NCBI GenBank assembly: GCA_002762985.1
Contig: PCXZ01000018.1
Coordinates: forward strand, 741-64,740
Direction: 5' to 3'
Length of the DNA stretch: 64,000 bases
From: Candidatus Woesearchaeota archaeon CG10_big_fil_rev_8_21_14_0_10_44_13
GTDB taxonomy: Archaea; Nanobdellota; Nanobdellia; Woesearchaeales; UBA12501
The translations under genes were made by a program, and so were the position numbers. Positions within the stretch are counted from its first letter, which is position 1; each line of letters begins with the position of its first letter. This document shows positions 11,150 through 52,404 of the stretch, piece by piece. Below the pieces are notes generated by a model. It was not told the origin of the DNA. It saw nothing but the letters and a program-made list of their open reading frames with translations, and searched no databases.

Positions 11150-11917
11150 ATGGACATTTCAACACTCAAAGAAGCCGGCCTGACAGAAGGAGAGATCAAG
11201 GTATATCTTGCTTTGTTAGAATTAGGCTCCAGCACAACGGGCCCGATAGTTGAGAAATCCAGGATAGCCCGTTCTATTATTTATCAAATTCTAGAAAAGC
11301 TTATGCAGAAAGGCCTTGTCTCTGTCATAACAAAAGAGAAGACAAAATATTTCCAGGCTGCAGAGCCGAATAAGATATTGGATTACATTGATGAAAGGGA
11401 AGAAAGACTGCAGGAAAACAAGGAGATGATTGAAAAACTGCTGCCGGAGCTTGAACTCAAGCAGAAGATGGCTGTGAAGAGCGCGACAAACATGTATTTT
11501 GGTTACAAAGGCATCCGCACAGCACATGAACATCTGTATTTGAAGCTGAAAAAAGGCGAAAGCTATGATTATATGGGCGTCCCTGCTTTCCAGCCAGAAG
11601 AACAGCATCTTTACTGGAAAAGGGATCATGTCAGAAGAATAAAGGCAAAAATAAAAACAAGAATATTATTCAATATAGATGCTGATCAAAACACATTAAA
11701 AAACAGGAATTCATATTGGGGGGTTGATGCAAGATACATGCCTGAAGGGATAAGAACTCCTGCCTGTTTTGCCATCTTCAAGGATACAACAATAATCATC
11801 TTGCAGTCCCCTCATGCCCTCGCAGTAGAAATAATCAATCAGGACATCGCAGACTCATTCCAGGCCTATTTCGAGGAATTCTGGAAGAGGAGTGAGCCGT
11901 TTAAACCAAACCCCTAA
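11150..11917 (+). CDS. TrmB-family transcriptional regulator
   Basis: N-terminal LTEGEIKVYLALLELGSSTTGPIVEKS.IARS.IYQILEKL wHTH; paralog of the 63275.. ORF. Confidence 0.75.
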   Translation: MDISTLKEAGLTEGEIKVYLALLELGSSTTGPIVEKSRIARSIIYQILEKLMQKGLVSVITKEKTKYFQAAEPNKILDYIDEREERLQENKEMIEKLLPELELKQKMAVKSATNMYFGYKGIRTAHEHLYLKLKKGESYDYMGVPAFQPEEQHLYWKRDHVRRIKAKIKTRILFNIDADQNTLKNRNSYWGVDARYMPEGIRTPACFAIFKDTTIIILQSPHALAVEIINQDIADSFQAYFEEFWKRSEPFKPNP

Positions 11918-12483
11918 ATCTCATGCCCCATCTTCTCTCTTTTCGCATCAAGATACCTCTTGTTATGCCCGTTCGGCTGGACAACGATGGGTATCCTCTC
12001 AGAGACCTCTATGCTTCCGTTCAGCCCCTTTATCTTCTCAGGATTATTCGTGATCAGCCTTATCTTCTTCAGACCGAGATCCTTCAGGATTGCGACAGCA
12101 GCAGAATAATCCCTCTCATCGGCCCTGAAGCCCAGCTGGTGGTTGGCTTCGACTGTGTCCATGCCTTTGTCCTGCAATGAATATGCCTTCATCTTGTTCA
12201 GCAAACCTATGCCCCTGCCTTCCTGCCTGAGATAGATCAAAACACCGTTCCTGCCTTCAGCGATAATCTGCATTGATCTTTCAAGCTGCTCCCTGCAGTC
12301 GCATCTCAATGAGAAAAGAGCCTCTCCTGTCAGGCATTCGGAATGGATCCTTACAAGAGCGCCATCTTCAGGATTCCCTGCTACCAAGGCCATGTGGCAT
12401 TTCTCTCCTTCAGAATAGGGGATCAGCCTGAACTGCCCGAATTTTGTGGGAAACTTCACCTCATCCCCTTTATTTAGCCTCAT
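11914..12483 (-). CDS. ribA: GTP cyclohydrolase II
   Basis: RIHSECLTGEALFSLRCDCREQL zinc-binding motif. Confidence 0.85.
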   Translation of the reverse strand: MRLNKGDEVKFPTKFGQFRLIPYSEGEKCHMALVAGNPEDGALVRIHSECLTGEALFSLRCDCREQLERSMQIIAEGRNGVLIYLRQEGRGIGLLNKMKAYSLQDKGMDTVEANHQLGFRADERDYSAAVAILKDLGLKKIRLITNNPEKIKGLNGSIEVSERIPIVVQPNGHNKRYLDAKREKMGHEI

Positions 12484-13586
12484 ATATATCCCTCTATGAC
12501 GACATCATCGCCTATCTTCCTTATCTCGACATCCCTGAGGTTTATCGCCTGGTCCATGTTCCTTATGCCTTCTCCGCCGAGAGGCGTCTTTGCATCCCTG
12601 CCGCCGATGATCTTGGGGGAGATGAAATAGACGAATTTGTCGACTATGCCTTGTTTCAGCGCAGAGGCGCTTATCTCTGAGCCCCCTTCAATCATTATAT
12701 TTGTTATACCCCTTAGGACAAGCTCATACATCAGCTCTTTCAGGTCAACCTTATCTTCATCCTTCCCGACAATCACAACACCGATGCCTTTCTGCTCAAG
12801 CGCCACCTTTTTCTGCCTGTCGCATCTCTTTGTCGTTGCGATCAGCGCATTCTTGTCTGCCAATATCCTTGAATCCAATGGTATCCTCAATCTGCTGTCG
12901 AGTATTATCCTCAAAGGGTCCCTTCCGTTCTCCATCCTGCATGTAAGCCTAGGATTGTCGTGAAGGACGGTGTTTATGCCGACGATGACTGCATCAACCC
13001 GGTTCCTGAGTTCATGGACATATCTCCTGCTCGCCTCTGAGCTTATCCATTTCGACATCCCTGTAGTGGTTGCTATCTTCCCGTCCAGCGTCATGGCTGC
13101 CTTCAATATGACGAACGGCCTTTTTGTAGTGACATATTTTATGAATGCCTCGTTCAGCTTCCTTGTCTCCTTCTCCATTATGCCGTATTCAGTCTCTATC
13201 CCGTGTTTTTTCAGTTCCCGGAAGCCATTCCCGTTCACTTTCGGATTCGGGTCCTGGATAGAGGAGACGACCCTGCTTATGCCTGCCTCGATTATCGCTT
13301 TTGTGCATGGGCCTGTACGGCCATAGTGGCAGCAGGGTTCAAGAAGGGTGTACATGGTTGCGCCTTTCAGCATGCTCTTGTCGCTTACAGAATTCATCGC
13401 CTCGATCTCAGCATGAGGCATGCCAGCTTTCTTATGGTACCCATGGCCTATCACTGTGCAGTCTTTGACTATGACTGCCCCCACTATGGGATTCGGAGAA
13501 GTCCTTCCTTCAGCTTTCCTGGCCAGCTCAAACGCAAGCTGCATGAAATAGCTGTCCTCTTTTTTTCCTCGCCCTTCCATTTTCAT
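12480..13586 (-). CDS. ribD: Bifunctional riboflavin deaminase/reductase
   Basis: HAEIEAM ... PCCHYGRTGPC deaminase motif plus C-terminal reductase domain; 368 aa. Confidence 0.85.
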   Translation of the reverse strand: MKMEGRGKKEDSYFMQLAFELARKAEGRTSPNPIVGAVIVKDCTVIGHGYHKKAGMPHAEIEAMNSVSDKSMLKGATMYTLLEPCCHYGRTGPCTKAIIEAGISRVVSSIQDPNPKVNGNGFRELKKHGIETEYGIMEKETRKLNEAFIKYVTTKRPFVILKAAMTLDGKIATTTGMSKWISSEASRRYVHELRNRVDAVIVGINTVLHDNPRLTCRMENGRDPLRIILDSRLRIPLDSRILADKNALIATTKRCDRQKKVALEQKGIGVVIVGKDEDKVDLKELMYELVLRGITNIMIEGGSEISASALKQGIVDKFVYFISPKIIGGRDAKTPLGGEGIRNMDQAINLRDVEIRKIGDDVVIEGYI

Positions 13587-13603
13587 TCACAGATTATGAG
13601 CTT

Positions 13604-14029
13604 CTATTTAAGCCTTCTCAGCATCTTCAGGCATGACTCTACTGACCGTTTTGCATACTCATCGATCCTGTCAACGGCTCCTGCATGGGTTATCTTCGGC
13701 CCCGTAACTCCCAGTGCGACGGGCTTGTCGAACTGTACTGCCAGGTCTGCCATCTTCCTTGCCGCATTCTGCGCAACGATGTTGTCATGGTCAGTGTCCC
13801 CTTCGATGACGGCGCCCAAAGTCACAACTCCGTCTATATTCTTCATCTCAAGAAGCCTCTTTATAGCCAATGGCATGTCAAATGCTCCCGGCACCCTCAT
13901 GACCTTCTCCACCTTTGCGCCCATGAAGACTGCATGCTCTTCTGCCATCTTCGCCATGAGATGGGTGATGTCTGCGTTGAAATCCGACACAACAAACCCT
14001 ATCTTTTCATTCATTTTTATCCCCCGCAT
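13604..14029 (-). CDS. ribH: 6,7-dimethyl-8-ribityllumazine synthase
   Basis: 141 aa, lumazine synthase fold motifs (GAFDMP, TLGAVIEGDT). Confidence 0.8.
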   Translation of the reverse strand: MRGIKMNEKIGFVVSDFNADITHLMAKMAEEHAVFMGAKVEKVMRVPGAFDMPLAIKRLLEMKNIDGVVTLGAVIEGDTDHDNIVAQNAARKMADLAVQFDKPVALGVTGPKITHAGAVDRIDEYAKRSVESCLKMLRRLK

Positions 14030-14066
14030 TGTTTTTTATCATTAAATCACCATAAAACATAAGAGA

Positions 14067-14543
<477 letters not shown>

Positions 14544-19040: not shown

Positions 19041-19466
19041 ATGAAGCTGAAAGTCAAAAAACTCCAAGAAGATGCTATTCTTCCTCAGCATGCCAAAAAA
19101 GGCGATGCTGCCATCGACCTGAGTTCGTGCGAAGAGCTTGTTCTTAAGGCAGGAGAGAAGAGGCTTGTGAGGACAGGAATAAGCCTTGCGATACCAGAAG
19201 GCTTTGCCGGCTTTGTATGGGACCGTTCAGGCCTTGCAGCCAATCATTCTGTCCACAGCATAGCAGGAGTAGTCGATTCTGGGTACAGGGGTGAAGTGAA
19301 GGTCGTCCTGATAAACCTCAGCAAGGAGGATTTCAGGATCGAGAAAGGCATGAGGATAGCGCAGATGGCGATCCAGCCTGTTTCCTCAGTGGATGTCGAA
19401 GAAGTTAGGGAGCTGGATAATGATACTGAAAGGGGAAAAGGAGGATTTGGAAGCACTGGAAGATAG
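19041..19466 (+). CDS. dut: dUTP diphosphatase
   Basis: GDAAIDL ... RSGLA dUTPase motifs; 141 aa. Confidence 0.85.
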   Translation: MKLKVKKLQEDAILPQHAKKGDAAIDLSSCEELVLKAGEKRLVRTGISLAIPEGFAGFVWDRSGLAANHSVHSIAGVVDSGYRGEVKVVLINLSKEDFRIEKGMRIAQMAIQPVSSVDVEEVRELDNDTERGKGGFGSTGR

Positions 19467-19630: not shown

Positions 19631-19703
19631 CTGTTTTATTCTCTTTCTTGGAATATTGTTCTTGTGCGTTAGCTTTATTAATACATCACACAGAAGCATT
19701 CTG

Positions 19704-20153
19704 ATGCCAAAGATAAACTATACTGAAGAAGACCTTGAAGACCATAATGGCATGGGTGCGGTGATAAAAGATGATAAAGGCCAGATTCTTGTGCAGGAGC
19801 ATGTCAAATATGGCTTCTGGACCCTGCCGGTTGGGAAGGCAAAAAAAGACAGCGACGTGAAGGAAGGCCTAAAAAAGGAGCTTCTTGAGGAATGCGGGAT
19901 AAATGCAGTGAAATTCAGGGAGATAGCAAAGAGAGATTATTATTATACAAGGAATAAAAGAAAAGTTCTGGTTATGGTGCATCTTTTTGAGATAGAAAAG
20001 TATGAAGGGATTATTGAGAACAGAGAGCCTGAAAAGCACAGAAAACAGCTGTTTATGGGCCTTAAGGAGATAGTTAAGCTTCCTTATCTCTCTGACATAA
20101 CCTTGTTCTATCTTGAAACGCTCGGGATCAAGAGGAAAGCGAAACTGAAGTGA
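19704..20153 (+). CDS. Nudix hydrolase
   Basis: Nudix box GKAKKDSDVKEGLKKELLEECGI; start taken at the internal Met. Confidence 0.7.
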   Translation: MPKINYTEEDLEDHNGMGAVIKDDKGQILVQEHVKYGFWTLPVGKAKKDSDVKEGLKKELLEECGINAVKFREIAKRDYYYTRNKRKVLVMVHLFEIEKYEGIIENREPEKHRKQLFMGLKEIVKLPYLSDITLFYLETLGIKRKAKLK

Positions 20154-20157
20154 GCTG

Positions 20158-21606
20158 TTACCCTCCTTTTTTGTCCAATTTCAAATCATCATCCTGATTG
20201 TAGTGCAGATCGTATCTCAATGCCAATTCTGCCTTCTGGAGCTCTGAACCTATGTCCAAAGCATGGCTCATCTGAGAGATGACATGTTTCCTGTCAAGCA
20301 TCCTGAATATCTCTGCTGCGTTCCTGCCCCTGAACTCGTCCAGCTTCTTGCCTTCCTGGCTGTAATGCGAGATCACAATCTCTTTCTTCTCCTTATCCAC
20401 CTTTATCACAACATTGCCTCTTGGGTCCCATTCATGCTCCTTGCCCTTGTAATATATGTCAAGGATCTCCTGAACTTCTTTCATGCTCTCTTCATATATA
20501 TGGGCAGAAGCCGAGAATATTGTCATAGAGCCCATCTTTATCCCTGTCTCTTCAGAAACGTGCTTCTGGAGTTTCCTCAGCGCAAAGGCGTTCTGCGGCC
20601 ATCCCCTGTACATGTCATGGCTCCTGAAATATGCATTCATGAACAGCCTGTTGTCCTGCACGATGAAATTGACAAGGTCAAGGCATGGCGCATGCTCGTT
20701 ATACACATCCTTGCCAACATCCCATGTGACTGCTATGGCTCTCCTTGTGAAAGGCTCTTTCTTCAGCTTTTCTATGACTGACCTTATCTGGTCTACGCCT
20801 TCATGATCCATTAGCCTCTGGCCATAGGTGTAGTTTATGCCCTGGATTTTGTTGGCAGTCAGGACTTGGGGGTAATATGCCTCAAGCTCTTTTTTCGTGA
20901 AATTGAAGAAATCGTACCATCTCGGCTCTTCGGGGTCTTCGTCAGTTATTACAGCGACGATATTGAGCAGCTCTTTCTGCGTAGTGCTGTGGTGGCTTTT
21001 CTTTATGTGGCCGAACCTCATTATCTTGCTAAGGAGGATTATCCATGCCATCCCGACTGTCTTCGCCCTTATCTTGAATACAGAGCTGTCTGTAGGGAAT
21101 CTTTCAGGCAGCTCAAGCTTTGGCTCTGGGAAAAGCCTTGGCTTCCCAAAAGGCTTCCTGCCCTTGTCAATAGAACCTATCCTTTCTGCTATCTTCTTCG
21201 GATCGATCACTCCGATCATATTTATTATCTCAACATTCTTCCTGAATTCTGCAACCGCTTCATCAGGTATCTCTTTCTCTATGTGTGCGTTTTCAACTCC
21301 GAGAATGTTATGCCTGCTGTCTATGCCGTTTTTTGCCAGGCTTAAAAGCGCTTCACCGCTCCCTGACTTGTCTGTGCCGCAAAGGATTATGTATCTTATC
21401 GCAGGATTCGCGAATATGTTCCTTATTATGGCATTTATGCCTGCCTTCGAGTACAATTGGCCGATTGTAGAGAAAGAATTCCTGTCAAGGCCTTTCGCTA
21501 TCATCTCTTTCTCAGTCCACAAGGTGATTATGCTGATATTGCTGTCCTTATCACCGACTATAAGATTCTCAGAAAAATAAATAGGCCATCCCTCCTTCAT
21601 CTGCAT
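20158..21606 (-). CDS. thyA: Thymidylate synthase (ThyA family) with an ~170-aa N-terminal extension of unknown function
   Basis: C-terminal TS domain with RRAIAVTWD and HAPC nucleophile motifs; 482 aa in total. Confidence 0.75.
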   Translation of the reverse strand: MQMKEGWPIYFSENLIVGDKDSNISIITLWTEKEMIAKGLDRNSFSTIGQLYSKAGINAIIRNIFANPAIRYIILCGTDKSGSGEALLSLAKNGIDSRHNILGVENAHIEKEIPDEAVAEFRKNVEIINMIGVIDPKKIAERIGSIDKGRKPFGKPRLFPEPKLELPERFPTDSSVFKIRAKTVGMAWIILLSKIMRFGHIKKSHHSTTQKELLNIVAVITDEDPEEPRWYDFFNFTKKELEAYYPQVLTANKIQGINYTYGQRLMDHEGVDQIRSVIEKLKKEPFTRRAIAVTWDVGKDVYNEHAPCLDLVNFIVQDNRLFMNAYFRSHDMYRGWPQNAFALRKLQKHVSEETGIKMGSMTIFSASAHIYEESMKEVQEILDIYYKGKEHEWDPRGNVVIKVDKEKKEIVISHYSQEGKKLDEFRGRNAAEIFRMLDRKHVISQMSHALDIGSELQKAELALRYDLHYNQDDDLKLDKKGG

Positions 21607-21609: not shown

Positions 21610-22308
21610 TCATCTGAATATATCCTTTGATTTTTCCCATACTATCCTTTGTATGTCCCCTATCTGCATTATCCTTCCTTCTTTTACGCATTCGATCATG
21701 ATCCATCGCTCTTTTTTTGCTATCTCCATGTAGGCCTGCTCTGTGTCCTTCAGGTGGGAAGTGTCTGCTTCGTGGATATCCTTCCTGTTGCCTCTTTTTG
21801 TTATCAATGTCTGGGCGATCTCAGCAGGGACATGCAGGAAAATAACCGCATCAGGCCTCGGTATCATGTTCTGGCTGTATTCAAGGTCATCTATCCATTC
21901 CATGAACCTCTTCCTTTCCCCTGGATCCTTTATCTTTGATGCCTGATGGCCTTTGTTCGATTGCTGGTACCTATTGGCGATTATGATATCGCCTTCTTCA
22001 AGCCATCTTTTCATCATGGGTGCTGCATCAACCCTGTCCTCTGCATAGAATCTTGCGGCATCATACGGGCTTACGTCCTCTACTTTGCCGAATTTCCCGG
22101 CAAGATAATCCTCTACTTTCTTTGCGCATGGCCTGCCGTACTGCGGGAAATCGATTGTTTTTACCTTGAAGCCTTCTTTCTCAAGCTTTTCCACAAGAAG
22201 CTTTGATTGGGTAGCCTTGCCAGAGCCGTCAGTGCCTTCGATTACGATAAGTTTTCCTTTATGCTCCGATTTTCCTCTTTTAGGCATGTGTACCCCCAAG
22301 CCAAGCAA
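21610..22308 (-). CDS. tmk: Thymidylate kinase
   Basis: LIVIEGTDGSGKATQ P-loop; likely start at the internal Met (MPKRGK, ~22287). Confidence 0.85.
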   Translation of the reverse strand: MLGLGVHMPKRGKSEHKGKLIVIEGTDGSGKATQSKLLVEKLEKEGFKVKTIDFPQYGRPCAKKVEDYLAGKFGKVEDVSPYDAARFYAEDRVDAAPMMKRWLEEGDIIIANRYQQSNKGHQASKIKDPGERKRFMEWIDDLEYSQNMIPRPDAVIFLHVPAEIAQTLITKRGNRKDIHEADTSHLKDTEQAYMEIAKKERWIMIECVKEGRIMQIGDIQRIVWEKSKDIFR

Positions 22309-24823: not shown

Positions 24824-25564
24824 ATGATAGTAGCAATCTCAGGCAAAGGCGGCGTAGGCAAGACAGTCTTCTCAGCTTTGACCATAAAATACCTCACGTC
24901 AAAAGGGAAGAAAGTCCTTGCTGTCGATGCAGACCCTGATGCGAACCTTGCAGAGGCCCTCGGTGTTGAAGTCGAGAACAGCATCGGCGGGATAAGGGAG
25001 GAATTGCAGAAGATCCAGCACAAGATACCTGGCGGACTGACAAAAGAGGCTTTCCTGCAGAGGAAGATACAGGAGATAATAAGCGAACATAAGGGTTTCG
25101 ACCTTCTTGTTATGGGGCGTGCAGAAGGCCAGGGCTGCTATTGCTGGGTCAACAACATATTGAGAGAAAACATAGACAAATTATCTGCCAATTATGATTT
25201 CACAATAATCGACTGTGAAGCGGGGCTTGAGCATCTGTCAAGAAGGACGACAAAAGATGTTGATATTATGTTCGTAGTGCTTGACCAATCAAGGCTTTCC
25301 CTTAACACTGCATTAAGGATAAAAGAGCTGGCAAAAGAGGTTGATATAAATTTCAAGAAGCTTTTCATAGTGCAGAACAAGGGCCAGAACAAGAACTTTG
25401 AGAAAGAGGCAGGGAAGGAAGGAATCAAGGTCATTGGAGTCCTGCCTGAAGACAATGAGATCGTGAGGCTGTACAGCGAGGGGAAAGCCATAACTGGCAT
25501 AAGCGAGAAGGCAAATGCTTATTATTCTGTCAAACAGGTTTGGGAGAACCAAAATATTTATTAA
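24824..25564 (+). CDS. cooC: CooC/AcsF-type Ni-insertion ATPase (MinD/ParA family)
   Basis: Deviant Walker A SGKGGVGKT and GQGCYCW CxC nickel-binding motif; 246 aa. Confidence 0.8.
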   Translation: MIVAISGKGGVGKTVFSALTIKYLTSKGKKVLAVDADPDANLAEALGVEVENSIGGIREELQKIQHKIPGGLTKEAFLQRKIQEIISEHKGFDLLVMGRAEGQGCYCWVNNILRENIDKLSANYDFTIIDCEAGLEHLSRRTTKDVDIMFVVLDQSRLSLNTALRIKELAKEVDINFKKLFIVQNKGQNKNFEKEAGKEGIKVIGVLPEDNEIVRLYSEGKAITGISEKANAYYSVKQVWENQNIY

Positions 25565-25603: not shown

Positions 25604-26212
25604 ATGAGGATTTCTGCAGTCATAGAAGCTGATACTATAGAGAGCGCCCACCCCAAGGTCCTGGAATTGATCCATAATGAGGGGGATGAGCACAGCGACG
25701 AGTATGGGGCCAAGACAAGGGAAGTCTTCAACCTAATGATAAAGGTGAAGAACCCGACAGAGAAGATGATTCCGCATGCTTTCCACATGACGAAGATGGA
25801 ATTGGAGGAGTATGCCCTCAAATATTACCTCAGCCCGAAAGTCGAAGGCGAAGTCTACACCTATGGGGAAAGGATGCTTGATTTCAAAGGGGATGGGGAA
25901 TACAACCAGATCCAGCATATCATCGACAAGCTCAAGAAGAATGCAAACTCAAGGAGAGCTGTTGTTGTCTTATGGGATCCCACAAGGGATGGGACAAAGA
26001 TTGAGCATCCTCCGTGCATGGACATGCTGGTGTATAACCTCAGGAACGGGAAGCTCCATTGCACTTCTGTTTTCAGGAGCAATGACATGCTGAGGGCATG
26101 GCCGGCCAATGCATTCGGGATAACAAGATTGCAGGAATTCATCGCAGGAGAGATAGGATGCGAAGTCGGCACATTGACGACAATGTCAATAAGCGCGCAT
26201 ATTTATCTGTGA
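25604..26212 (+). CDS. thyA: Thymidylate synthase, short archaeal type (ThyA family)
   Basis: SRRAVVVLWD and EHPPCMD nucleophile motifs; 202 aa; paralog of the 20158..21606 ORF. Confidence 0.75.
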   Translation: MRISAVIEADTIESAHPKVLELIHNEGDEHSDEYGAKTREVFNLMIKVKNPTEKMIPHAFHMTKMELEEYALKYYLSPKVEGEVYTYGERMLDFKGDGEYNQIQHIIDKLKKNANSRRAVVVLWDPTRDGTKIEHPPCMDMLVYNLRNGKLHCTSVFRSNDMLRAWPANAFGITRLQEFIAGEIGCEVGTLTTMSISAHIYL

Positions 26213-26220
26213 GGATATCC

Positions 26221-27231
26221 ATGAAAACTAAAACGATATTGATTTTGGCAATTCTATGCATCTTCATTGTTTCATGCAGCGAGCAGCCTGGACAGCCTGA
26301 AGAAACAGGAGCCAAAGACACTAAAGCAGTTCAAACAATCCAGGAGGAAGCCAAAGCGCCTGAAATAACAAGAGAAAGCAAAATCCCTTCAGATGCAGTT
26401 AAGGTTACTCCTCAGACAGACATCAATCCTCCAAAATCAAAATCAGACGAATACGATGACCCTATTCCTTTATCCTCGGCAATCAACAGCGCAGGAGCTG
26501 AAGATTCCCCATTCATGATGCCAGATGGAAACACATTATATCTCTTCTTCACGCCCGATGTAAGGGTCCCTGTTGAAAAACAGCTTCTTGACGGTGTCAC
26601 AGGAATTTGGGTTTCAAAAAAAGTGATTGGAGAATGGGGCAAACCTGAAAGAGTTGTGCTCCAGGACCCTAAAAAGCTTGCGCTGGACGGCTGCGAGTTC
26701 GTCCTCGGCAGCACGATGTGGTTCTGCTCTGCACGGGAAGGCTATGCAGGCATAAACTGGTTCACAGCAGAATTCAAGGATGGGAAATGGCAGGATTGGA
26801 AGAGTGCGGATTTTAACCCTGATCATAAAGTAGGAGAGCTGCATATCTCAAATGACGGCAATGAGCTTTATTATCATTCAGACAGGCCCGGCGGCAAAGG
26901 CGGCCTGGACATCTGGGTGTCAAAAAAGGTCAATGGGGAATGGCAGCAGCCGGAAAATGTTGAGGCAGTCAACTCAGAGAGGGATGATGGGTGGCCTGCA
27001 TTGAACCCTGAGGAGAATGAGCTTTGGATTTACAGGGATTACGGGCTGTTGAGGTCAAAGAAAATCAATGGAGAATGGCAGACGCCTGAACCGATGTTCT
27101 CGCCGCTTGCGGGCGAAGCGACACTGGACAATGAAGGGAATGTCTATTTTGTCCATCATTATTTCAAGGACGATAAGATGATAGAAGCGGATATTTACGT
27201 TGCGCATAAAAAAGCGGTAAAACGGCGGTAA
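26221..27231 (+). CDS. Lipoprotein with PD40/TolB-like beta-propeller repeats
   Basis: MKTKTILILAILCIFIVSCSEQ lipobox; repeated DGN.LYF/YHSDRPGGKGG.DIWVS units. Confidence 0.55.
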   Translation: MKTKTILILAILCIFIVSCSEQPGQPEETGAKDTKAVQTIQEEAKAPEITRESKIPSDAVKVTPQTDINPPKSKSDEYDDPIPLSSAINSAGAEDSPFMMPDGNTLYLFFTPDVRVPVEKQLLDGVTGIWVSKKVIGEWGKPERVVLQDPKKLALDGCEFVLGSTMWFCSAREGYAGINWFTAEFKDGKWQDWKSADFNPDHKVGELHISNDGNELYYHSDRPGGKGGLDIWVSKKVNGEWQQPENVEAVNSERDDGWPALNPEENELWIYRDYGLLRSKKINGEWQTPEPMFSPLAGEATLDNEGNVYFVHHYFKDDKMIEADIYVAHKKAVKRR

Positions 27232-27241
27232 GGTGAATAGG

Positions 27242-27712
27242 ATGAAAGCAAAAATCATGGTTTTGGCCTTTATTGTGATGTTCGCATTGAGCGGCTGCGG
27301 AAGCACAAAGTGGGATATCTTCAAGGACGGGAAATTCAGCATAAGCTATCCTGTGATGAATATGGGCAAAGACCTGAATGAGAACCTGATGCTGCAGACA
27401 GGCAATTCCAGATGCATGCTCCTGGTGAACAAGTACCCTGGGCAGTCAGACGTGAAGGGATTCGCAAACTACATAAAAGACCTGCTGACAAAAGAACCTG
27501 CAACGACAATCACAAGCGAGGACATCAATGACTCAGAAGCCAATTTTGAACTGAGGGTCATCTACAGCAACAAGCCGTACATCTCAAAAGTCAAGTTAGT
27601 GTCGTGCGAAGGTGCAATGTACAATATAATGATGAACTGCCAGGAAAACGGCTATGAAAAGAATGCCCAGGATGTGGAATCCACACTAAGCTCGGTAAAA
27701 TGCAGTGAATGA
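27242..27712 (+). CDS. Lipoprotein, function unknown
   Basis: MKAKIMVLAFIVMFALSGCGS lipobox. Confidence 0.5.
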   Translation: MKAKIMVLAFIVMFALSGCGSTKWDIFKDGKFSISYPVMNMGKDLNENLMLQTGNSRCMLLVNKYPGQSDVKGFANYIKDLLTKEPATTITSEDINDSEANFELRVIYSNKPYISKVKLVSCEGAMYNIMMNCQENGYEKNAQDVESTLSSVKCSE

Positions 27713-27716: not shown

Positions 27717-28484
27717 ATGATAAACAAGACAAGGATAGGCGATATCGAAATCGGAGGGGAATCGAGATTCTTCAGGTTCGAAGAGAAAGATGATTTCAGG
27801 ATGGCATTCGCCCTTGCATATGATGAGCATAACCCAAAAATCATCGAAGAGAATGATGTGGATGCTGTCGCTATAACTATAAGAAGTGATAATCCTGAGG
27901 AAGCGATAAAGCAGGTCGAGGATTTCAGGAGTAGATGCAAGAAGCCGTTGATAATCTACACCCAGGACAACCCTAACACCGACCATATAATCATAGATGC
28001 TATAGCAAGGAGATTCCCCGGCCAGCATTTCCTTTTCTGCTCAGCGACAGTCAAGAACAAGGCGGCAGATATAGCGAATTCCGCCCTCAAGTTCGGCCAC
28101 AATGTAAGCGCTTATACGACATTGGATCCTGGCGGAGCCATCTCCCTTAACAAAGACCTCTTGAAGACGGGCCTGAAGCCTAAGCAGATCGTCATCGACC
28201 CGCTGACATCATTCATAGGGTATGGCATTGAATACTCTATAAGCGCGATGGAGAGGATAAGGCTGGATGCATTAGCCACAGACGAGACATTGAGGATGCC
28301 TATTCTTGCAGACCTGTCCGCTGTAAACCAGCTGAGAGAGGCCGATACGAAGGAAAAACAGCTCCATTGGGAGACCATGACTGCAGTCGCATTGATCGCT
28401 GCAGGCGCTGACCTGTTCATATTCAGGCACATAGAATCGCTGAGGAAAGTGAAGGGATTCGCAGAAAAGATGAAGAAGAGATAA
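27717..28484 (+). CDS. acsD: Corrinoid iron-sulfur protein small subunit (AcsD/CdhD family)
   Basis: IVIDPLTSFIGYGIEYSISAMERIRLDAL and WETMTAVALIAAGADLFIFRH match AcsD motifs recalled from Moorella. Confidence 0.7.
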   Translation: MINKTRIGDIEIGGESRFFRFEEKDDFRMAFALAYDEHNPKIIEENDVDAVAITIRSDNPEEAIKQVEDFRSRCKKPLIIYTQDNPNTDHIIIDAIARRFPGQHFLFCSATVKNKAADIANSALKFGHNVSAYTTLDPGGAISLNKDLLKTGLKPKQIVIDPLTSFIGYGIEYSISAMERIRLDALATDETLRMPILADLSAVNQLREADTKEKQLHWETMTAVALIAAGADLFIFRHIESLRKVKGFAEKMKKR

Positions 28485-28521: not shown

Positions 28522-29649
28522 ATGAAACTGAGCCCATTCAACCTTTATCCGCATCTTCCGAAGAAGAACTGCAGGGAATGCGGGGAATCCACATGCCTGG
28601 CTTTCGCCGTGAAGCTGCTGAACAGGGAAGCAGAGCTTGAGAAATGCCCGCATGTCAATGATGAACAGAAATCAAAGCTTAAGGCCATGTTCGAGCCGCC
28701 TGTGAAAGAGATAAGATACAAAGGATATAAGATGGGGGGAGAAGAGGTGATTCACAGGCATGAGCTGACATTCCATAATCTTCCGCTAATTGCATCGAAA
28801 AACAGGCCGGATATATTTTTTGAGAGGGCTGGCAAGAGGATGTCTGTTGAGCTTAAAGAGGCTCAGGATGACATCGGCGGGATCATATGGTGCAAAGAGA
28901 AGGCAAGAGCAGATGAATCCATAGAGAAGGCAAAAAAGGATGATCTGCCCGTGATAATGAGGGTGAATTCGATAGAAGAGGCAAAATCATTCTCAACAAG
29001 ATATGACAAGATCATGGTTGAATTCCACGGCTCTCCTGCAGAGGTCTTCAGGAATCTCAAGGATTACAGGGAGAGGGCGATAAAGGGTGAGCAGGGATGC
29101 AATCTTCCGACGATGTTCCTGGCTGATGATGAGGCAGAAGCGGCTTATGCATTGATGAGGTATGCGAATATTGTCGTGATAAACAACGAGGAAAAGGAAT
29201 TCCTTGAGCCATTCATGTATCTGCGCCAGGCGATATTCTCTGACCCGAGGATCCCTGCAAAAGTGGATGCTATACTCTACAAGATAGGGACTCCTGATGA
29301 GAACAGCCCTATCTTCGTCGTAGGAAATTATGCCCTGACATATTACACTGTCTCAGGCGACATAAACTCCCAGAAGATAAACTCCTATCTCATCGCATTC
29401 GACACTGAGGGTTTGAGCGTCTGGACAGCAGTCGCTGCCAATAAGTTCCTCCCTTCAAAGATAAGAGAGGTAATTGAAAACTCAAGGCTTTCTGAGAGGG
29501 TGAAGAACAGGACTCTGGTCATCCCGGGCTTCGCAGCGCCCTTAAAGGGAGCGATTGCAGAGGAAACCGGATGGAAGGTGGTTGTAGGGCCTGAGGACAG
29601 CAGGGAGATAGGGAATTTTATAGAGGAGATGAAAAGAGAGAAGCAATGA
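28522..29649 (+). CDS. acsC: Corrinoid iron-sulfur protein large subunit (AcsC/CdhE family), shortened
   Basis: N-terminal C-x2-C-x4-C-x16-C [4Fe-4S] motif (CRECGESTC...C); 375 aa. Confidence 0.7.
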   Translation: MKLSPFNLYPHLPKKNCRECGESTCLAFAVKLLNREAELEKCPHVNDEQKSKLKAMFEPPVKEIRYKGYKMGGEEVIHRHELTFHNLPLIASKNRPDIFFERAGKRMSVELKEAQDDIGGIIWCKEKARADESIEKAKKDDLPVIMRVNSIEEAKSFSTRYDKIMVEFHGSPAEVFRNLKDYRERAIKGEQGCNLPTMFLADDEAEAAYALMRYANIVVINNEEKEFLEPFMYLRQAIFSDPRIPAKVDAILYKIGTPDENSPIFVVGNYALTYYTVSGDINSQKINSYLIAFDTEGLSVWTAVAANKFLPSKIREVIENSRLSERVKNRTLVIPGFAAPLKGAIAEETGWKVVVGPEDSREIGNFIEEMKREKQ

Positions 29650-44779: not shown

Positions 44780-45289
44780 ATGATGCAGTACAAACGAGAG
44801 CCTTTAGAGGATTTTGAGATAGAAGCCCTGAAGAAGGCCTGCGAATCATTTGAAGATTCATTAGTCGTCAATGTCCTGTTAGAGACGGGCATGAGAGTAT
44901 CTGAACTTGCCAATCTGACAAAGGATCAAATCTCTTGGCAGAGAGACTGCATCGCAACAATAGGCAAGGGCGGAAAAAGAAGGGTAATCCCTATGAGCAA
45001 AGCCACGAGGTTTTACCTTACTGAACATTTTAAAGACCATTCAAAGATAGAGTTTGGCCAGAGATGGATTCAGAAGATTGTAAAAAGAATAGCTGAAAAA
45101 GCCAGTATAATGAAGAAGATAAGCCCTCATGTTCTCAGGCATACTTTTGCAGTCTGCTACATCCACAAAGGCGGAAACATAAGGGCTTTGCAGGGCATCT
45201 TAGGCCATTCCCACATACAGACCACCGATATGTACCTCAACTATTCGGGCATAAGGGTTCTGGAGGATTTCAAGCGTGTATGGGAATGA
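44780..45289 (+). CDS. Tyrosine recombinase, catalytic domain only (169 aa)
   Basis: R (ETGMRVSE), K, HVLRHTF, LGHSHIQTTDMYLNYS catalytic residues. Confidence 0.7.
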   Translation: MMQYKREPLEDFEIEALKKACESFEDSLVVNVLLETGMRVSELANLTKDQISWQRDCIATIGKGGKRRVIPMSKATRFYLTEHFKDHSKIEFGQRWIQKIVKRIAEKASIMKKISPHVLRHTFAVCYIHKGGNIRALQGILGHSHIQTTDMYLNYSGIRVLEDFKRVWE

Positions 45290-46350
45290 TGGAAACAAGA
45301 AATAATTCATTTGAGAATCTAATCCTACTCTGCGGAGTTATTATTGTCTTATACAAATGGTTTGAATCTTATCAGGAGGAGCTTTTAAGTCCTTTTCAGG
45401 AGATAAATTGGCTTCATGTTGGAATATACTTTGTCATCATCCTATCTTCTGTAATACTCTTAATCTTTGCCTACAAGAGAAGGAAACAACACTTAGAGAG
45501 GAAGAGAGCAGAAGAGGAAAAGCTGCAAAGACAAGAGAAACAGTTGAAAGGGCTTTTGGGTACAACCTTTGGCTATTATTCCTCAGATGAAACAAGAGAG
45601 AAATTGAGGGAGATAAAGAAAGCGATATCCTCAATTCCGGAAAAGATAACCTCAAAATATGACCTGAACGGATTCTACGAAAAAGTTGAGAATATAATCT
45701 CTGAAAAGATAGGGCAGGAGAATGAATTACGGGAAAGAGAAAAAGCAAGAATACGGACTGAACATGAAGAAGCAAAAAGAAGGGAACAGGAAAGAGAGCA
45801 GAAACTCAAAGAAAGCAAGATTGAAATAAAAAAGCCAATCATAGAACGGCATGGCAAAAAGCTGGAGAAATCATTCTATCGTGTCAAGGATTTAAGCGAG
45901 GATGAAAGATTAAGAGCAATATCGCAGGGCTTTAAGCATTACAGAGGAATTGAGCTTGACGGCCATCTGTGCATTGGCGGGTTTTACATAAAGAACAATA
46001 AGAAAGAAAGCTCTTATCATTTCACTGCAAAACATCTCTTTGCAGAGCTTCGCCCCAATTCAAAGATAGAGTACGGCTTGGGAGACAAGAGGGCTGATGT
46101 GGCTTATATCTGCAAGGATTACAAATTGGGGCTTGAGATTGAGACAGGAACCAATAAGATTGAGCAGTTAGCAGCAAAAATCCCATGGCTGGAAAGGAAC
46201 TTCAGCCAGTGGATTTTTGTCTGCTCAAGGAAGGTCATGGGTAAATATGTGCATTTGGTTGATGGCAAGAAAAGCTTCTGTCTATCTCCAAAAAGGGCAA
46301 AGGAGAAGGTCTTGGAGCTGACTGCACCCAAATGCACCGAAAGGATTTAG
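45280..46350 (+). CDS. Hypothetical membrane / coiled-coil protein
   Basis: N-terminal TM helices, RKRAEEEKLQRQEKQ coiled coil, conserved-looking C-terminal domain. Confidence 0.4.
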   Translation: MGMMETRNNSFENLILLCGVIIVLYKWFESYQEELLSPFQEINWLHVGIYFVIILSSVILLIFAYKRRKQHLERKRAEEEKLQRQEKQLKGLLGTTFGYYSSDETREKLREIKKAISSIPEKITSKYDLNGFYEKVENIISEKIGQENELREREKARIRTEHEEAKRREQEREQKLKESKIEIKKPIIERHGKKLEKSFYRVKDLSEDERLRAISQGFKHYRGIELDGHLCIGGFYIKNNKKESSYHFTAKHLFAELRPNSKIEYGLGDKRADVAYICKDYKLGLEIETGTNKIEQLAAKIPWLERNFSQWIFVCSRKVMGKYVHLVDGKKSFCLSPKRAKEKVLELTAPKCTERI

Positions 46351-46364
46351 GCGAGAAGCCGTTA

Positions 46365-46392
46365 AAACCTCGAAAACAGGCTTTTCGAGGTT
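46365..46392 (+). terminator. Perfect 11-bp stem hairpin after the 45280..46350 gene
   Basis: AACCTCGAAAA cagg c TTTTCGAGGTT. Confidence 0.35.
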
Positions 46393-46664
46393 CAAAATGG
46401 ACGGGTAATATAGGCCTGATTGGTGCGCTTAAGCCCCCATTTAATAGCAGGATAGGCAAGGCCACGTATCAGATGGAGCTTTATCTAAACAAGGAGAGGT
46501 TCAAGGAAAGGATAGGGGAGATAACTAGGAAGGGGGTCTTGCCTGTGCTGGTGTGGTTTTATAAGGAAGAGAGGTAATATGTTAAGAACAAAAATATTAA
46601 GACTTGGGAAAGAGAAAGTTCTTCTGAGTTAATTTTATATAGTGAGTTCTGCTTTCTTATATGT

Positions 46665-47150
46665 ATGGGCATCTTTAAGGCAGTCAAAGAGATGATCACA
46701 CTCATATCTGAAATGCCCAAAATATTGTTAGTAAGTATGGGTTTCTTATGGGTAGGAAGCATAGTTTGGTATTTAAAAGAACCAAGCGAAAATGGTCTTT
46801 TGGGGATGGGATTTATATTTGTTATTACTATCATAAATATTTATTATTATACAAGAGAGGGATTTAAGGATTGGATAAAAGGTGAGAAATTAAAAGTTCT
46901 TATAAGAAGATTATACTTAGATGGCGATAAACAATTATTGAAGGAGATAAAAGAGACTGATTTAGATAATCTGCCTTATGCAATTTGGGATGGTGCTGAA
47001 TATGCTGAGATATACAAAAAAGTATTAGGTTATTCAATAAAGGCAAGAAGGGGGGATAATTGTATGTATAGTCTTACGGATAGGATACTCGGTGGGGATA
47101 TTCATCTACGTAGTATTCACGAGACTATTAAGAATAAGAGATTAAAATAA
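46665..47150 (+). CDS. Hypothetical membrane protein
   Basis: 161-aa ORF with N-terminal TM helices. Confidence 0.35.
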   Translation: MGIFKAVKEMITLISEMPKILLVSMGFLWVGSIVWYLKEPSENGLLGMGFIFVITIINIYYYTREGFKDWIKGEKLKVLIRRLYLDGDKQLLKEIKETDLDNLPYAIWDGAEYAEIYKKVLGYSIKARRGDNCMYSLTDRILGGDIHLRSIHETIKNKRLK

Positions 47151-47258
47151 TAATCGGGCATACCCCTCGGCTTTCTTTTATAATTTTGTGTTAATTTGGT
47201 ATATAATGCCCTCAGTTTAATCCATTTATGGCCGGAAAGAATAAAATTATATAAATTC

Positions 47259-47909
47259 TTAATCTTTATAGATTTTCACTTCTTTTAATCTTTGCTTTAA
47301 TTTATCAAGATTTTCCTTTCTTCTGTGAAAATCTTTAACCTTATTTAGATGTTCAATATTACATTCAAGATAATATATAATTCTTTTTTTATCAAAATCA
47401 ATATTTAAAGTTTTAAGCATATTTTTCCATTCTGGCGTTCCAAAAACTATTATCTTATCTACAACTTCAGTTATGTTGGATATATTCGTCGTATCTTTAT
47501 GATCTTTATGAACTGCCCCTTGGAGATTAATTGTCCCCTTTTTTAAATTAATTTGAGTGACAGTAGATATGCTTTCGTGATATCCAGTATTACCTCCATA
47601 TAGTATTTCAACAAAATCATTTAGTTTTGGGTATCTATTAGTTCTTATAAATATATCCCCAGGAAAACAAAAGTCAGATATTATGAATCCGATAATTTCA
47701 ACTTCAACATATTGTGTGGTCCTCCTCGACTTTAAATAAGATTGAAAGCATTTTGTTAGTTTAACAGGTAATTCATTAAAAATATCAATCAAAAAAGCAA
47801 AGCGTTCTGGTTGTTTAAGAATTTCCTTTGCAAACCTTTTTGGATCTGCTCTTTCAATCGTCTCTTTAATCTCTTGTTTTTTATCAAAACGCACCATATA
47901 ACCACCCAA
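47259..47909 (-). CDS. Hypothetical protein
   Basis: 216-aa ORF. Confidence 0.4.
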   Translation of the reverse strand: MGGYMVRFDKKQEIKETIERADPKRFAKEILKQPERFAFLIDIFNELPVKLTKCFQSYLKSRRTTQYVEVEIIGFIISDFCFPGDIFIRTNRYPKLNDFVEILYGGNTGYHESISTVTQINLKKGTINLQGAVHKDHKDTTNISNITEVVDKIIVFGTPEWKNMLKTLNIDFDKKRIIYYLECNIEHLNKVKDFHRRKENLDKLKQRLKEVKIYKD

Positions 47910-48007
47910 TCCCCTATTTGGGATATCTTTATTTATAAATATTTGTCCATAAAAACCAAAAACTTTATATATAACCTAGTATTATACCATGTAATAGGGT
48001 GTTATAA

Positions 48008-48178
48008 ATGGTAAAAATACTAATTGACTTATCTGACGATGAAGATAAAATAGTTGAAGTGTACAAACTAATGAATAATCTCAAAACTAAACAAGAAGCA
48101 ATTAAACAGATTGTGCAGTACTTTAAGGTCGATATAAAACCGAAAAATGTCAAAGAAAAAGATTATTATTCAGTCTGA
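48008..48178 (+). CDS. Possible 56-aa ribbon-helix-helix-like small protein
   Basis: MVKILIDLSDDEDKIVEVYKLMNNLKTKQEAIKQIV pattern (strand then helix). Confidence 0.3.
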   Translation: MVKILIDLSDDEDKIVEVYKLMNNLKTKQEAIKQIVQYFKVDIKPKNVKEKDYYSV

Positions 48179-48189
48179 GGAGGTAAAAA

Positions 48190-48795
48190 ATGGAAATTTC
48201 AACAATAGTCTGGATCGGAGCATCAGTCTTTGTAGCAGTTATATTGTATATTTTAATTAAGAATTGGGTTGTTATATACAACAAATTTGTATACTGGAGA
48301 ACCAGGGCAGAGAGAAAATTCGCAGATATTGATGTTGTGATGCAACAAAGGATTGATATGCTCCCTGCACTTGCTCAGATTGTTAAGAAATATGATATTC
48401 ATGAATATAAAGCGCTTAAAGAGGTAATTGAAGCAAGAAGTCGCTGGACAAAAGATGCTTCTCTGAATGAGAAAGTTCAGACAGTTCAAGAGATTGATAA
48501 CAGCTTTTTAAGGATTCAGGCAGTTTTTGAAAAATATCCTCAATTAAAAGCAGATGCTTTACATCAGAGCATCCTAGGGCATGGCAATGTTTCAAGGATG
48601 GAATCAAGATTAAGAGAGTTTAGATTAGGATATAATAGGGTGGCTCAGGACTATAATGAGAGAGTACAAAAATTTCCTAGAAATGTAGTAGCAAAGGTTC
48701 ATGGGTTTAAGTTGTTAGACTATCTAACTATGGGCAACCAGGTAAATCAAGGGCCACAGCAATCCTATAAACCAAAAGAATTATTTGAAGAATAA
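48190..48795 (+). CDS. LemA-family membrane protein
   Basis: N-terminal TM helix then the LemA-like region YWRTRAERKFADIDVVMQQRIDMLPAL. Confidence 0.65.
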   Translation: MEISTIVWIGASVFVAVILYILIKNWVVIYNKFVYWRTRAERKFADIDVVMQQRIDMLPALAQIVKKYDIHEYKALKEVIEARSRWTKDASLNEKVQTVQEIDNSFLRIQAVFEKYPQLKADALHQSILGHGNVSRMESRLREFRLGYNRVAQDYNERVQKFPRNVVAKVHGFKLLDYLTMGNQVNQGPQQSYKPKELFEE

Positions 48796-48803
48796 TTATC
48801 AAA

Positions 48804-49301: not shown

Positions 49302-49302
49302 T

Positions 49303-49869: not shown

Positions 49870-50060
49870 CAAAAATAACCTATTCTTTAATAAACACAAT
49901 TAGAAGAATATTCCGCAAACATAAACATCATGCAGTATATGATAAGAAGTGGTGTCACTGGTATTGTAGTAAATGTAACCGTGAACTATATTATAATGAT
50001 CTGCCACCCAAAGTCTGGAAGCATTTAATGCAAAAATCAAGGAGGGTAAAAAGACATTAA
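49866..50060 (+). CDS. Small basic His/Cys-containing protein
   Basis: 64-aa ORF with HKHH...C.W.CSKC. Confidence 0.3.
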   Translation: MTKITYSLINTIRRIFRKHKHHAVYDKKWCHWYCSKCNRELYYNDLPPKVWKHLMQKSRRVKRH

Positions 50061-50061
50061 A

Positions 50062-50769: not shown

Positions 50770-50774
50770 ATAAA

Positions 50775-51182: not shown

Positions 51183-51188
51183 ATGGTA

Positions 51189-51669: not shown

Positions 51670-52404
51670 TCAATATACCCTTTCTAACACTTCCATCTTA
51701 TCCTTATACTCTTCCAGCGAGATGTCCCCATTTGCATACTTCAGCTGCAACAGCTGGATAGGATCATTCACCAGATGGAAGCTTTCCTTCTTCTTGTGGC
51801 CAAAAGCAGTATTGATCTTGTTCTGCAAATCCTTGTTGCTTATATGGGCATATATCTGCGTTGTGTGGATGTCAGAATGGCCTAATGCCCTCTGCACATA
51901 ATACAGATCAACACCTTTCTCCAAGAGAAAGGTGGCAAAAGTATGCCTCAAAGTATGGAAGCTGTAAGCGTGCCTCTGCTGTCCACAAACAGTTTTTTCT
52001 GTCTCAATCAGCAGGCCTGCTTCTTCCAGGCATTTCCTGAACTTGTTTGATAACTGCCCTTCTGCCATCCATCCTTTAAACACAGCAGGGATTACATACT
52101 CAGAACCATTGATCCTGAACCATTTCTCCAGTATTGGCTTTAGCTTCTCTGGAAGCATCACATATCTGTCCTTGCTTCCCTTGCCTTGCACAATCTTAAT
52201 CCTCTCGCTCTCAAAGTCAATGTCCTGCTTTTTCAGGCTGCAAGCCTCACTTATCCTCAAGCCGCAGCATAATGCCAATAAACAAGCGATGAATATATCT
52301 GTTTCCTTAATGCAATTGAACAGCTCCAATAGCTGTTTCTTGTTCAGCACATTCGGCAGTTTCCTGCCTTTTTCTTTTATCTTCCTTATATTGACCATTT
52401 TCAC
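51670..52404 (-). CDS. Tyrosine recombinase / integrase, catalytic domain
   Basis: GLRISEA (R), HTLRHTFA (HxxR), LGHSDIHTTQIYAHIS (Y). Confidence 0.8.
   Translation of the reverse strand: MKMVNIRKIKEKGRKLPNVLNKKQLLELFNCIKETDIFIACLLALCCGLRISEACSLKKQDIDFESERIKIVQGKGSKDRYVMLPEKLKPILEKWFRINGSEYVIPAVFKGWMAEGQLSNKFRKCLEEAGLLIETEKTVCGQQRHAYSFHTLRHTFATFLLEKGVDLYYVQRALGHSDIHTTQIYAHISNKDLQNKINTAFGHKKKESFHLVNDPIQLLQLKYANGDISLEEYKDKMEVLERVY

Follow-up and report, generated by a model that had tools for sequence, protein, structure and literature searches.

We analysed a stretch of 64,000 nucleotides from Candidatus Woesearchaeota archaeon CG10_big_fil_rev_8_21_14_0_10_44_13 (contig PCXZ01000018.1, positions 741 to 64,740 of the forward strand; hereafter, the window), focusing on one gene on its minus strand, at 20158..21606, which an earlier note made from the sequence alone had described as a thymidylate synthase (TS) with an uncharacterized N-terminal domain. 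The predicted product comprises three domains, not two: an N-terminal domain homologous to MtrA, a short archaeal-type ThyA and a C-terminal DUF4346 domain. The two flanking domains constitute an autonomous module, and the TS is an insert within it. The whole is a single genuine gene, co-transcribed with tmk, which encodes the kinase of thymidine monophosphate (dTMP). Taking the different lines of evidence together, we consider it probable that the protein is a tmk-linked TS in which a short ThyA is inserted into an MtrA-like plus DUF4346 module that handles a ligand or cofactor.

Domain structure of the protein

The open reading frame (ORF) spans 482 amino acids (aa) and contains the three motifs by which it was originally recognized, all located on the minus strand: RRAIAVTWD (aa 288-296), HAPC (aa 305-308) and SASAHIYE (aa 365-372). 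Residue numbers throughout are counted from the ATG at 21606. The previous assignment of a complete TS to the C-terminal ~300 aa holds with regard to the enzyme but not with regard to its size. Pfam profiles divide the ORF among MtrA (PF04208, aa 3-145, E 3.9e-20, 72.6 bits against a cutoff of 25), Thymidylat_synt (PF00303, 79.7 bits, cutoff 24.3) and DUF4346 (PF14251, aa 394-472, E 1.3e-17, 64.7 bits, cutoff 29.6), and the NCBIfam profile TIGR03283 covers aa 179-377 with 191 bits, above its curated cutoff of 174.55. The MtrA-like alpha/beta domain, which we denote Ser-type, occupies aa 3-148 (21163..21600, minus strand, as are all the following) and is succeeded by a Pro-rich linker, aa 149-175 (21082..21162), with conserved F159, P160 and P171. 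The short archaeal-type TS domain, aa 176-385 (20452..21081), is only ~200 aa long, and the last ~90 aa, the nature of which had been missed, form the DUF4346 domain ('PterinBD-DUF4346'; aa 392-476, 20179..20433), with three strands and two helices. An AlphaFold2 model computed with 69 homologues as input reached a predicted local distance difference test score (pLDDT) of 93.7 and a predicted template modelling score of 0.76; pLDDT was 79-85 in the linker, and the TS part matched solved TS structures in Foldseek searches (E 1e-14). The mean pairwise identity is similar in the three domains (0.44, 0.49 and 0.44 for the N-terminal, TS and C-terminal domains, respectively), which indicates similar constraint, and therefore the flanking domains are not decaying passengers.

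All catalytic and dUMP-binding residues of E. coli ThyA have their equivalents in the TS domain, namely the catalytic Cys146 (Cys308; codon 20683..20685, minus strand), the phosphate-binding arginines R126'/R127' and R166, S167 and D169, and Asn177, His207 and Tyr209. In an alignment of 69 sequences of the family, C308, P307, R288, R328, S329, D331, N339, H369 and Y371 are invariant (69/69), and position 289 is Arg in 60 of the 69. Cys308 is thus the predicted nucleophile, and Asn339 corresponds to Asn177, the residue that specifies uracil; the Asp found at this position in the dCMP hydroxymethylase/hydroxylase branch is not present. The window contains another TS, as had been noted, a stand-alone short ThyA of 202 aa within the acetyl-CoA synthase (ACS) cluster (25604..26212, plus strand; tblastn; TIGR03283, 200 bits), which is 36% identical to the TS domain of the fused protein. 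In both copies, the W80/W83 segment and the C-terminal ~55 residues of E. coli ThyA are missing. In ThyA, this segment and the C-terminal end form the pocket for p-aminobenzoic acid and the lid over the folate. Given the conservation of the catalytic residues, together with the operon and Tmk context, the catalytic domain most likely represents a working dTMP synthase.

The N-terminal domain turned out to be readily identifiable. In addition to the Pfam match, it aligns over 142 residues with the MtrA structures 5LAA, 8Q3V and 5L8X (E 8e-21, for 5LAA, to 2e-12), and because of these matches to Pfam and to the Protein Data Bank (PDB), we regard it as a recognizable homologue of the corrinoid-binding subunit of the methyl-H4MPT:CoM methyltransferase of methanogens, contrary to its earlier description as uncharacterized. 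The same description was right in that this region lacks dihydrofolate reductase (DHFR) and dCMP-deaminase motifs: Pfam and NCBIfam gave no such match, and both identities were discarded.

In MtrA, the cobalt ligand His84 is hydrogen-bonded to Glu54, a meander has the consensus GAIPF/Y-x-EN, and the pocket for the nucleotide tail is made up of Asp17-N, Lys52-N, Thr53, Gly57-O and Asn64, the base being held between Tyr18 and Val61 (Wagner et al., PMC4915002). In the family analysed here, phmmer and MAFFT alignments place either Ser83 (codon 21358..21360, minus strand) or a 2-residue deletion at the position of His84, the column holding Ser in 60 of the 69 sequences, Cys in 4, Thr in 2 and His in none. 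The position of Glu54 is taken by Ser53 (59/69), the meander reads ENAHIEKEIP in the window protein, with 2 residues deleted and only the Glu and the Pro retained, and all three loops that bear the corrin ring in MtrA are shortened. Because both His84 and Glu54 are lost and the meander is shortened, His-on cobalamin binding of the MtrA kind is unlikely. A conserved His or Cys that might serve as a replacement ligand was not found in the MtrA-like domain of the 69 sequences. Nevertheless, the tail-pocket residues Gly56 and Asn63 and the hydrophobic pair Leu15/Ile60 are retained, and the family has near-invariant residues of its own, W30, Q50, Y52, R62, D79, E112 and R122. The scores against the MtrA equivalog profiles fall below their cutoffs (72.8 vs 249 for TIGR01111, 116.5 vs 568 for NF002128 and 95-98 vs 161 for NF002126). 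There is neither a membrane anchor nor a set of mtrB-H neighbours: the domain is followed by the TS, and the adjacent genes are tmk, a Nudix hydrolase gene, dut and the ACS gene. As judged by these comparisons, the N-terminal domain is a homologue of MtrA and not a member of that family in the functional sense.

Within this domain, Asn129 and Ile131 of the window protein (21220-21216 and 21214-21212) replace an Asp and an Arg that are present in 67 and 66 of the 69 sequences, respectively. A protein of the family that lacks the TS domain (P0133) likewise has Ile at position 131. These replacements may reflect a lineage-specific loss of a salt bridge.

The C-terminal domain carries the conserved DUF4346 signature (DPRGN, H448, ELQKAE and YxQD in the 69-sequence alignment). 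It matches the C-terminus of TIGR00284, an archaeal dihydropteroate-synthase-like family that DUF4346 terminates, and positions 288-369 of NF002128. We found no solved structure related to it, either in a profile search of the PDB (none below E 0.19) or in a Foldseek search with the model of the domain, of pLDDT 86.5 (none below E 0.35).

The flanking module and its distribution

The association of the two flanking domains is not confined to the fused protein. In the NF002128 profile, named MtrA, the MtrA-like part (positions 107-268) lies directly beside DUF4346 (288-369). When 1.84 billion representative proteins were searched exhaustively with HMMER for the N-terminal domain, only 789 matched at E <= 1e-3, 277 of them at E <= 1e-10; the top 150 were classified with purpose-built profiles for the three domains and checked against Pfam. 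Among these 150, there were 94 proteins with all three domains in the order seen in the window. Genuine two-domain proteins without a TS were also found (P0133, P0165 and P0255), along with three proteins of 394-415 aa in which the TS middle has decayed and the Arg-Arg, Pro-Cys and Arg-Ser-x-Asp motifs are gone. P0133, P0165 and P0255, as well as the variants with a dead TS, retain the Ser-type loop and the signature residues of both the N- and the C-terminal domains. Seven Woesearchaeota contigs, obtained from different samples, carry the form without TS immediately upstream of tmk and encode no TS within 8-11 kb of it, and one of the forms with a dead TS adjoins tmk and a kinase::dCMP-deaminase gene. 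The module thus survives without the TS and still beside tmk, and therefore it has a role of its own.

A Chloroflexota family of Ser-type two-domain proteins without a TS (42 matches, annotated as 'MtrA' or 'DUF4346 protein') occurs in a different setting. On 16 contigs, the gene is flanked on one side by a cobT-folP-folC cluster of divergent orientation and on the other by two cobS genes; in one example (L124 1-8705, GCA_035653335.1), cobT is of the archaeal type, folP is extended by 110 aa at its N-terminus, and the two cobS genes are arranged in tandem. Another protein with both domains, from a metagenome-assembled genome (MAG) of Actinophytocola (P0314; L128 6175-9041), is His-less, with MtrA-like loops and not the Ser-type loop, and additionally has a C-terminal carrier-protein-like tail; its gene overlaps the stop codon of a gene for a B12-binding radical SAM methylase. 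The same cluster encodes four alkaline-phosphatase-family proteins and a PP-binding protein. Finally, the two-domain relatives of the His type (P0308, P0309 and P0317) retain Glu54, His84 and the meander motif. The simplest history that we infer from these sequences would start with a corrinoid-binding MtrA plus DUF4346 pair and proceed through a Ser-type form devoid of cobalt ligation to the insertion of ThyA in DPANN archaea and bacteria of the Candidate Phyla Radiation (CPR), the insert having later decayed or disappeared in a few lineages.

The three-domain architecture itself is widespread. A word-indexed search retrieved 564 relatives, and nearly all of the best 120 have the same three Pfam domains. 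When each GTDB species was represented by one genome, at least 595 of the species genomes scanned encoded a relative, and in the best 80 loci, which we inspected, the three domains were encoded in one ORF in every case (80/80). By record titles, the archaeal relatives belong to DPANN (Woese-, Nano-, Aenigm-, Micr- and Pacearchaeota) and the bacterial ones to CPR (Kerfeld-, Wolfe-, Nealson- and Buchananbacteria, Paceibacterota and others). The mean identity between archaeal and bacterial sequences (0.39) is nearly equal to that within archaea (0.43) and within bacteria (0.40), which points to horizontal spread. Three viral contigs from IMG/VR (L084, L085 and L086) encode full-length three-domain homologues, with ~30% identity and the Ser-type loop intact. 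On one of them (L086 3923-7174), the next gene encodes a ribonucleotide reductase related to PDB 7URG. Two further candidates from the viral scan, L099 and L109, were rejected as family members, L099 being a classical ThyA and L109 a chance short match. The closest relative, 72% identical, comes from a Woesearchaeota MAG that is syntenic with the window from ~15.0 to 22.3 kb, with no adjoining ACS.

The fused gene of these relatives usually lies next to genes of pyrimidine deoxynucleotide metabolism. Within 2.5 kb of the fused gene in the 80 inspected loci, tmk, dCMP deaminase and dCTP deaminase (DCD) genes were each found in 25 loci and a dUTPase gene in 14. In several cases (P0117, P0119, L026, L042 and L070), Tmk is additionally fused to the C-terminus of the protein. 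The gene context is a coherent route from deoxyuridine monophosphate (dUMP) through dTMP to dTDP. The sequence family is already public, under the names 'thymidylate synthase', 'hypothetical' or 'DUF4346 protein'. In the literature searched, we found no publication on this architecture or on DUF4346, and a search for MtrA together with thymidylate synthase returned nothing relevant.

Possible roles of the module

Under the model that we consider probable, the ThyA domain would bind dUMP supplied by dut or, in relatives, by dCMP deaminase or dCTP deaminase. Cys308 would attack C6 of dUMP, C5 would be methylated from what is presumably a reduced-pterin one-carbon donor, and the resulting dTMP would be handed to the dTMP kinase encoded next to it, which in some relatives is part of the same chain. 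The flanking module would descend from corrinoid-binding MtrA plus DUF4346 proteins as a derived, Ser-type form that kept the nucleotide-tail pocket residues and gained the invariant or near-invariant W30, Y52 and R62; its task would be to handle a ligand or cofactor for the truncated TS, the active site of which is open. Three observations argue for this role: DUF4346 is linked to pterin enzymes, both by the fusion to a dihydropteroate-synthase-like protein and by the folP-folC neighbourhood; DUF4346 is positioned where the classical lid would be; and aromatic and basic residues have been gained in the old ligand pocket.

Several points weigh against this interpretation. The biochemistry and the cofactor choice of archaeal ThyA are largely unstudied, and the one-carbon donor of the short archaeal form is unsettled (PMC9012536, PMC9931769); for the fused family or DUF4346, no biochemical data were found in the literature searched. 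A pure lid role leaves the survival of the module without the TS domain unexplained. A second TS gene is located nearby in 6 of the 80 relatives as well as in the window, and two Woesearchaeota loci (L037 and L076) have a single operon in which a classical thyA and a folA::glyA fusion accompany the fused gene and tmk. Because a second TS is often encoded alongside, simple redundancy of the fused enzyme with ThyA is questionable. Its cofactor or its product may differ from those of ThyA, but a product other than dTMP is unlikely in view of the invariant Asn339 and the Tmk fusions. The classical ThyA of these two loci (L037 3253-8102 and L076 2049-7011) belongs to TIGR03284, with a score of about 300 bits. 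The folA::glyA product there is an unusual bifunctional enzyme of 573-605 aa that combines DHFR with serine hydroxymethyltransferase, the other two steps of the thymidylate cycle.

A stronger version of the cofactor-handling role, in which the Ser-type module would be a cofactor module that changes the short ThyA, by means of a His-off cobamide or another non-folate donor or reductant, or by regeneration of tetrahydropterin, appears unlikely, albeit not negligibly so. A cobamide-dependent TS appears quite improbable. In such an enzyme, the MtrA-like domain would still hold a corrinoid, in the base-off, His-off state known from the corrinoid iron-sulfur protein, and would present the methyl group of methyl-Co(III) to the Cys-activated C5 of dUMP, and Co(I) would be re-methylated from a methyl-pterin bound to DUF4346, so that no dihydrofolate would be made and DHFR would not be needed. 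Such a mechanism is consistent with the true homology of the N-terminal domain to MtrA, with the full set of cobalt-ligation motifs in the His-type relatives that share the MtrA-like plus DUF4346 arrangement, with the location of the Chloroflexota genes between cobT and two cobS, with the overlap of the P0314 gene with that for a B12-binding radical SAM methylase, with the retention of G56, N63 and L15/I60 in the tail pocket and with the open active site of the short TS. A switch of cofactor in the TS fold has a precedent, from folate to flavin, in the flavin-dependent dCMP hydroxylases (PDB 9IQU/9IQC; PMC13326640). However, His84, Glu54 and the GAIPYxEN meander are all gone, the three loops that carry the corrin are shortened, and no conserved His or Cys stands in for the ligand. 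Among the frequent neighbour clusters of the 80 fused loci, genes for cobamide uptake or synthesis are not enriched, and a domain of 90 aa is small for a site that activates methyl-pterin. Furthermore, one-carbon metabolism is generally limited in CPR and DPANN genomes.

Equally improbable, in our estimate, is a regulatory or scaffolding role, in which the former tail pocket would bind dUMP, dTMP, dTTP or another effector and the module would gate the TS, or couple it to dTMP kinase, with no chemistry of its own. The conserved residues are indeed those of the pocket that holds the ribonucleotide phosphate in MtrA, to which W30, Y52 and R62 have been added specifically in the Ser type. The module without TS is always directly upstream of tmk, and the Tmk fusions described above are compatible with such coupling. 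To our knowledge, however, TS enzymes are not classically subject to allosteric regulation, and this scenario explains neither the link between DUF4346 and pterin enzymes nor that between the module and cobT, cobS and folP in Chloroflexota.

Harder still to credit is a self-contained cycle in which the module would be a dihydropterin (dihydrofolate) reductase unrelated to FolA, fused to TS in the manner of the DHFR-TS of protozoa and plants, with the reductant held by the Rossmann-like domain and the pterin by DUF4346. The autonomy of the module and its persistence after the loss of the TS would be expected of an independent enzyme, and DUF4346 terminates the dihydropteroate-synthase-like TIGR00284. 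The Chloroflexota gene is divergently paired with the cobT-folP-folC cluster, and no folA was seen there. Moreover, no FolA-like sequence was detected in the 64-kb window, and FolA is encoded near the fused gene in only 4 of the 80 loci, in each case beside a second TS gene (in L019 a TS-like ORF of 276 aa, in the other three, L020, L037 and L076, a classical thyA). Against these observations, a dinucleotide-binding glycine motif was not found at the first beta-alpha turn, searches of Pfam, NCBIfam and the PDB and with Foldseek detected no similarity to known reductases, and some CPR genomes carry a functional folA (PMC11974145).

It seems very improbable that the product of this TS-fold enzyme is not dTMP but a pyrimidine nucleotide with a different C5 modification, for example 5-hydroxymethyl-dUMP. 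This would explain the second TS, which is found in the window and in 6 of 80 loci, sometimes as a classical thyA of the same operon; Foldseek matches to dCMP hydroxylase and CMP hydroxymethylase have E-values like those to TS, and distant homologues are encoded on viral contigs. Nevertheless, the score exceeds the curated cutoff of the TIGR03283 equivalog, the uracil-specifying Asn339 is invariant, and the family has a housekeeping-like character, with at least 595 cellular genomes that encode a member and with linkage or fusion to dTMP kinase.

The possibility considered in the earlier note that a separate upstream gene had been joined to the TS through a sequencing error or a lost stop codon, or that an internal start lies near residue 165, can be dismissed, and so can an assembly error. 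Nothing in favour of such an artefact was found beyond the unusual length that gave rise to the idea, and it is excluded by the presence of the identical protein in four independent assemblies, the same layout in all 80 loci inspected and in 94 proteins among the 150 best representatives, the conservation of the linker residues F159, P160 and P171 and the confident single-chain model (pLDDT 93.7).

Gene neighbourhood and comparison with known systems

The fused gene is translationally coupled to tmk (21610..22287, minus strand; 225 aa, identified with Pfam and NCBIfam), which is located directly upstream in the same operon and ends 9 nt before the ATG at 21600. The tmk stop codon TGA (21612-21610) overlaps the sequence GAGGA (21611-21607). 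Because GAGGA is 6 nt 5' of this second ATG, translation probably starts at Met3, giving a coding sequence at 20158..21600 (minus strand) for a protein of 480 aa, compared to 482 aa for the frame opened to the ATG at 21606. For a 100% identical protein (P0001), which occurs on contigs of three independent origins (JGI, ENA and Logan), gene callers likewise report 480 aa. The NCBI record PIN86851.1, 'thymidylate synthase [Candidatus Woesearchaeota archaeon ...]', falls in the same 90% cluster.

The dut-Nudix-thyA-tmk cluster abutting the ACS locus was found as previously described. A Nudix hydrolase gene (19662..20153, plus strand; PF00293) is convergent with the TS gene and lies next to dut (19041..19466, plus strand; TIGR00576, 161.6 bits), the dUTPase of which supplies dUMP. 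On the far side of tmk, the ACS alpha/beta gene starts at 22357. It extends to 24564 and is of the fused alpha/beta type (CODH_A_N, CdhC and ACS_CODH_B_C); because the family matches start only at residue 72-75, the true start is probably ~70 codons downstream of the TTG listed. The stand-alone thyA is located between a gene for a cooC-like ATPase (24824..25564) and cdhD/cdhE (27717..28484 and 28522..29649), and is followed on its 3' side by two ORFs without a clear family, at about 26220..27231 (a weak PD40 repeat) and 27233..27712 (no match). The presence of a thyA within an acetyl-CoA synthase operon is unusual.

Elsewhere in the window, the stretch 44780-52404 has a low GC content (0.32-0.38, compared to about 0.45 in the rest) and is bounded by ORFs of the phage integrase family, a short one of 169 aa at 44780..45289 and another at 51670..52404 (minus strand). 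It encodes LemA, a uridine-kinase-like protein and a protein of the 2'-5' RNA ligase family, and is probably an integrated element. A cluster of riboflavin biosynthesis genes at 11914-14534, made up of ribA (GTP cyclohydrolase II), a ribD of the bacterial type and a ribH-like gene, lies in surroundings that are otherwise archaeal (NMD3, TrmB, RTC and XPD helicase). No tRNA genes and no Rfam matches at the gathering threshold were found in the 64-kb window.

Cells depend on the synthesis of thymidylate, and only two types of enzyme, ThyA and ThyX, are known to carry it out. The architecture described here appears to be a common form of TS in two large radiations of ultra-small, host-dependent organisms. 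A module that derives from a B12-binding protein pair, lacks the cobalt ligand and survives without TS suggests a missing piece of thymidylate or one-carbon metabolism, be it the capture of a cofactor, its recycling or a new donor. Should the module prove to be a cofactor module, then DPANN, CPR and some viruses would possess a FolA-independent and mechanistically third route to dTMP, and this could bear on the cofactor used by the short archaeal ThyA in general. If its role is merely structural, the result amounts to a refinement of annotation, and the MtrA-like domain would then be no evidence of methyl transfer of the methanogenesis type. The gene itself encodes an ordinary housekeeping enzyme; the widespread, unstudied module offers a concrete and cheap experimental target, one protein of 480 aa.

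Comparison with known systems places each part of the protein among familiar relatives. The TS domain is a member of the methanogen-type short TS family (TIGR03283, of the M. jannaschii MJ0757 type), which it matches in scoring above the cutoff, in its length of ~200 aa, in the absence of the W80/W83 segment and the lid and in the retention of all dUMP-binding and catalytic residues. However, those enzymes stand alone, as does the one encoded at 25604..26212, whereas here the domain is embedded between MtrA-like and DUF4346 domains. The flavin-dependent dCMP hydroxylase (9IQU/9IQC; the phage 5hodCMP synthase), which is among the best structural matches, shares the short TS fold (~217-234 aa, target-normalised TM-score 0.72-0.80) but acts on dCMP with FMN/FAD and O2, whereas the window protein keeps the uracil-specific Asn and shows no sign of flavin binding. 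With MtrA and its cytoplasmic homologues (5LAA, 5L8X and 8Q3V), the N-terminal part has in common a homologous alpha/beta domain and the tail-pocket residues, and differs from them in the absence of His84, Glu54 and the full GAIPF/YxEN meander, in the shortened loops and in the lack of a transmembrane anchor and of mtr genes nearby. The two-domain MtrA-like plus DUF4346 proteins (NF002128 type; Chloroflexota, Woesearchaeota and others) have both flanking domains and, in the Woesearchaeota and Chloroflexota members, the Ser-type loop, but no TS between the two halves, and the His-type members among them keep the cobalt-ligand His. As a whole and by analogy, the protein is in concept closest to the DHFR-TS of protozoa and plants, a TS joined to an autonomous partner in one chain of ~480-520 aa, the TS halves of which are aligned by Foldseek and the partner of which also occurs free-standing. 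It is not, however, a DHFR-TS: the partner here is not DHFR (no match to PF00186) and is split around the TS rather than being N-terminal only.

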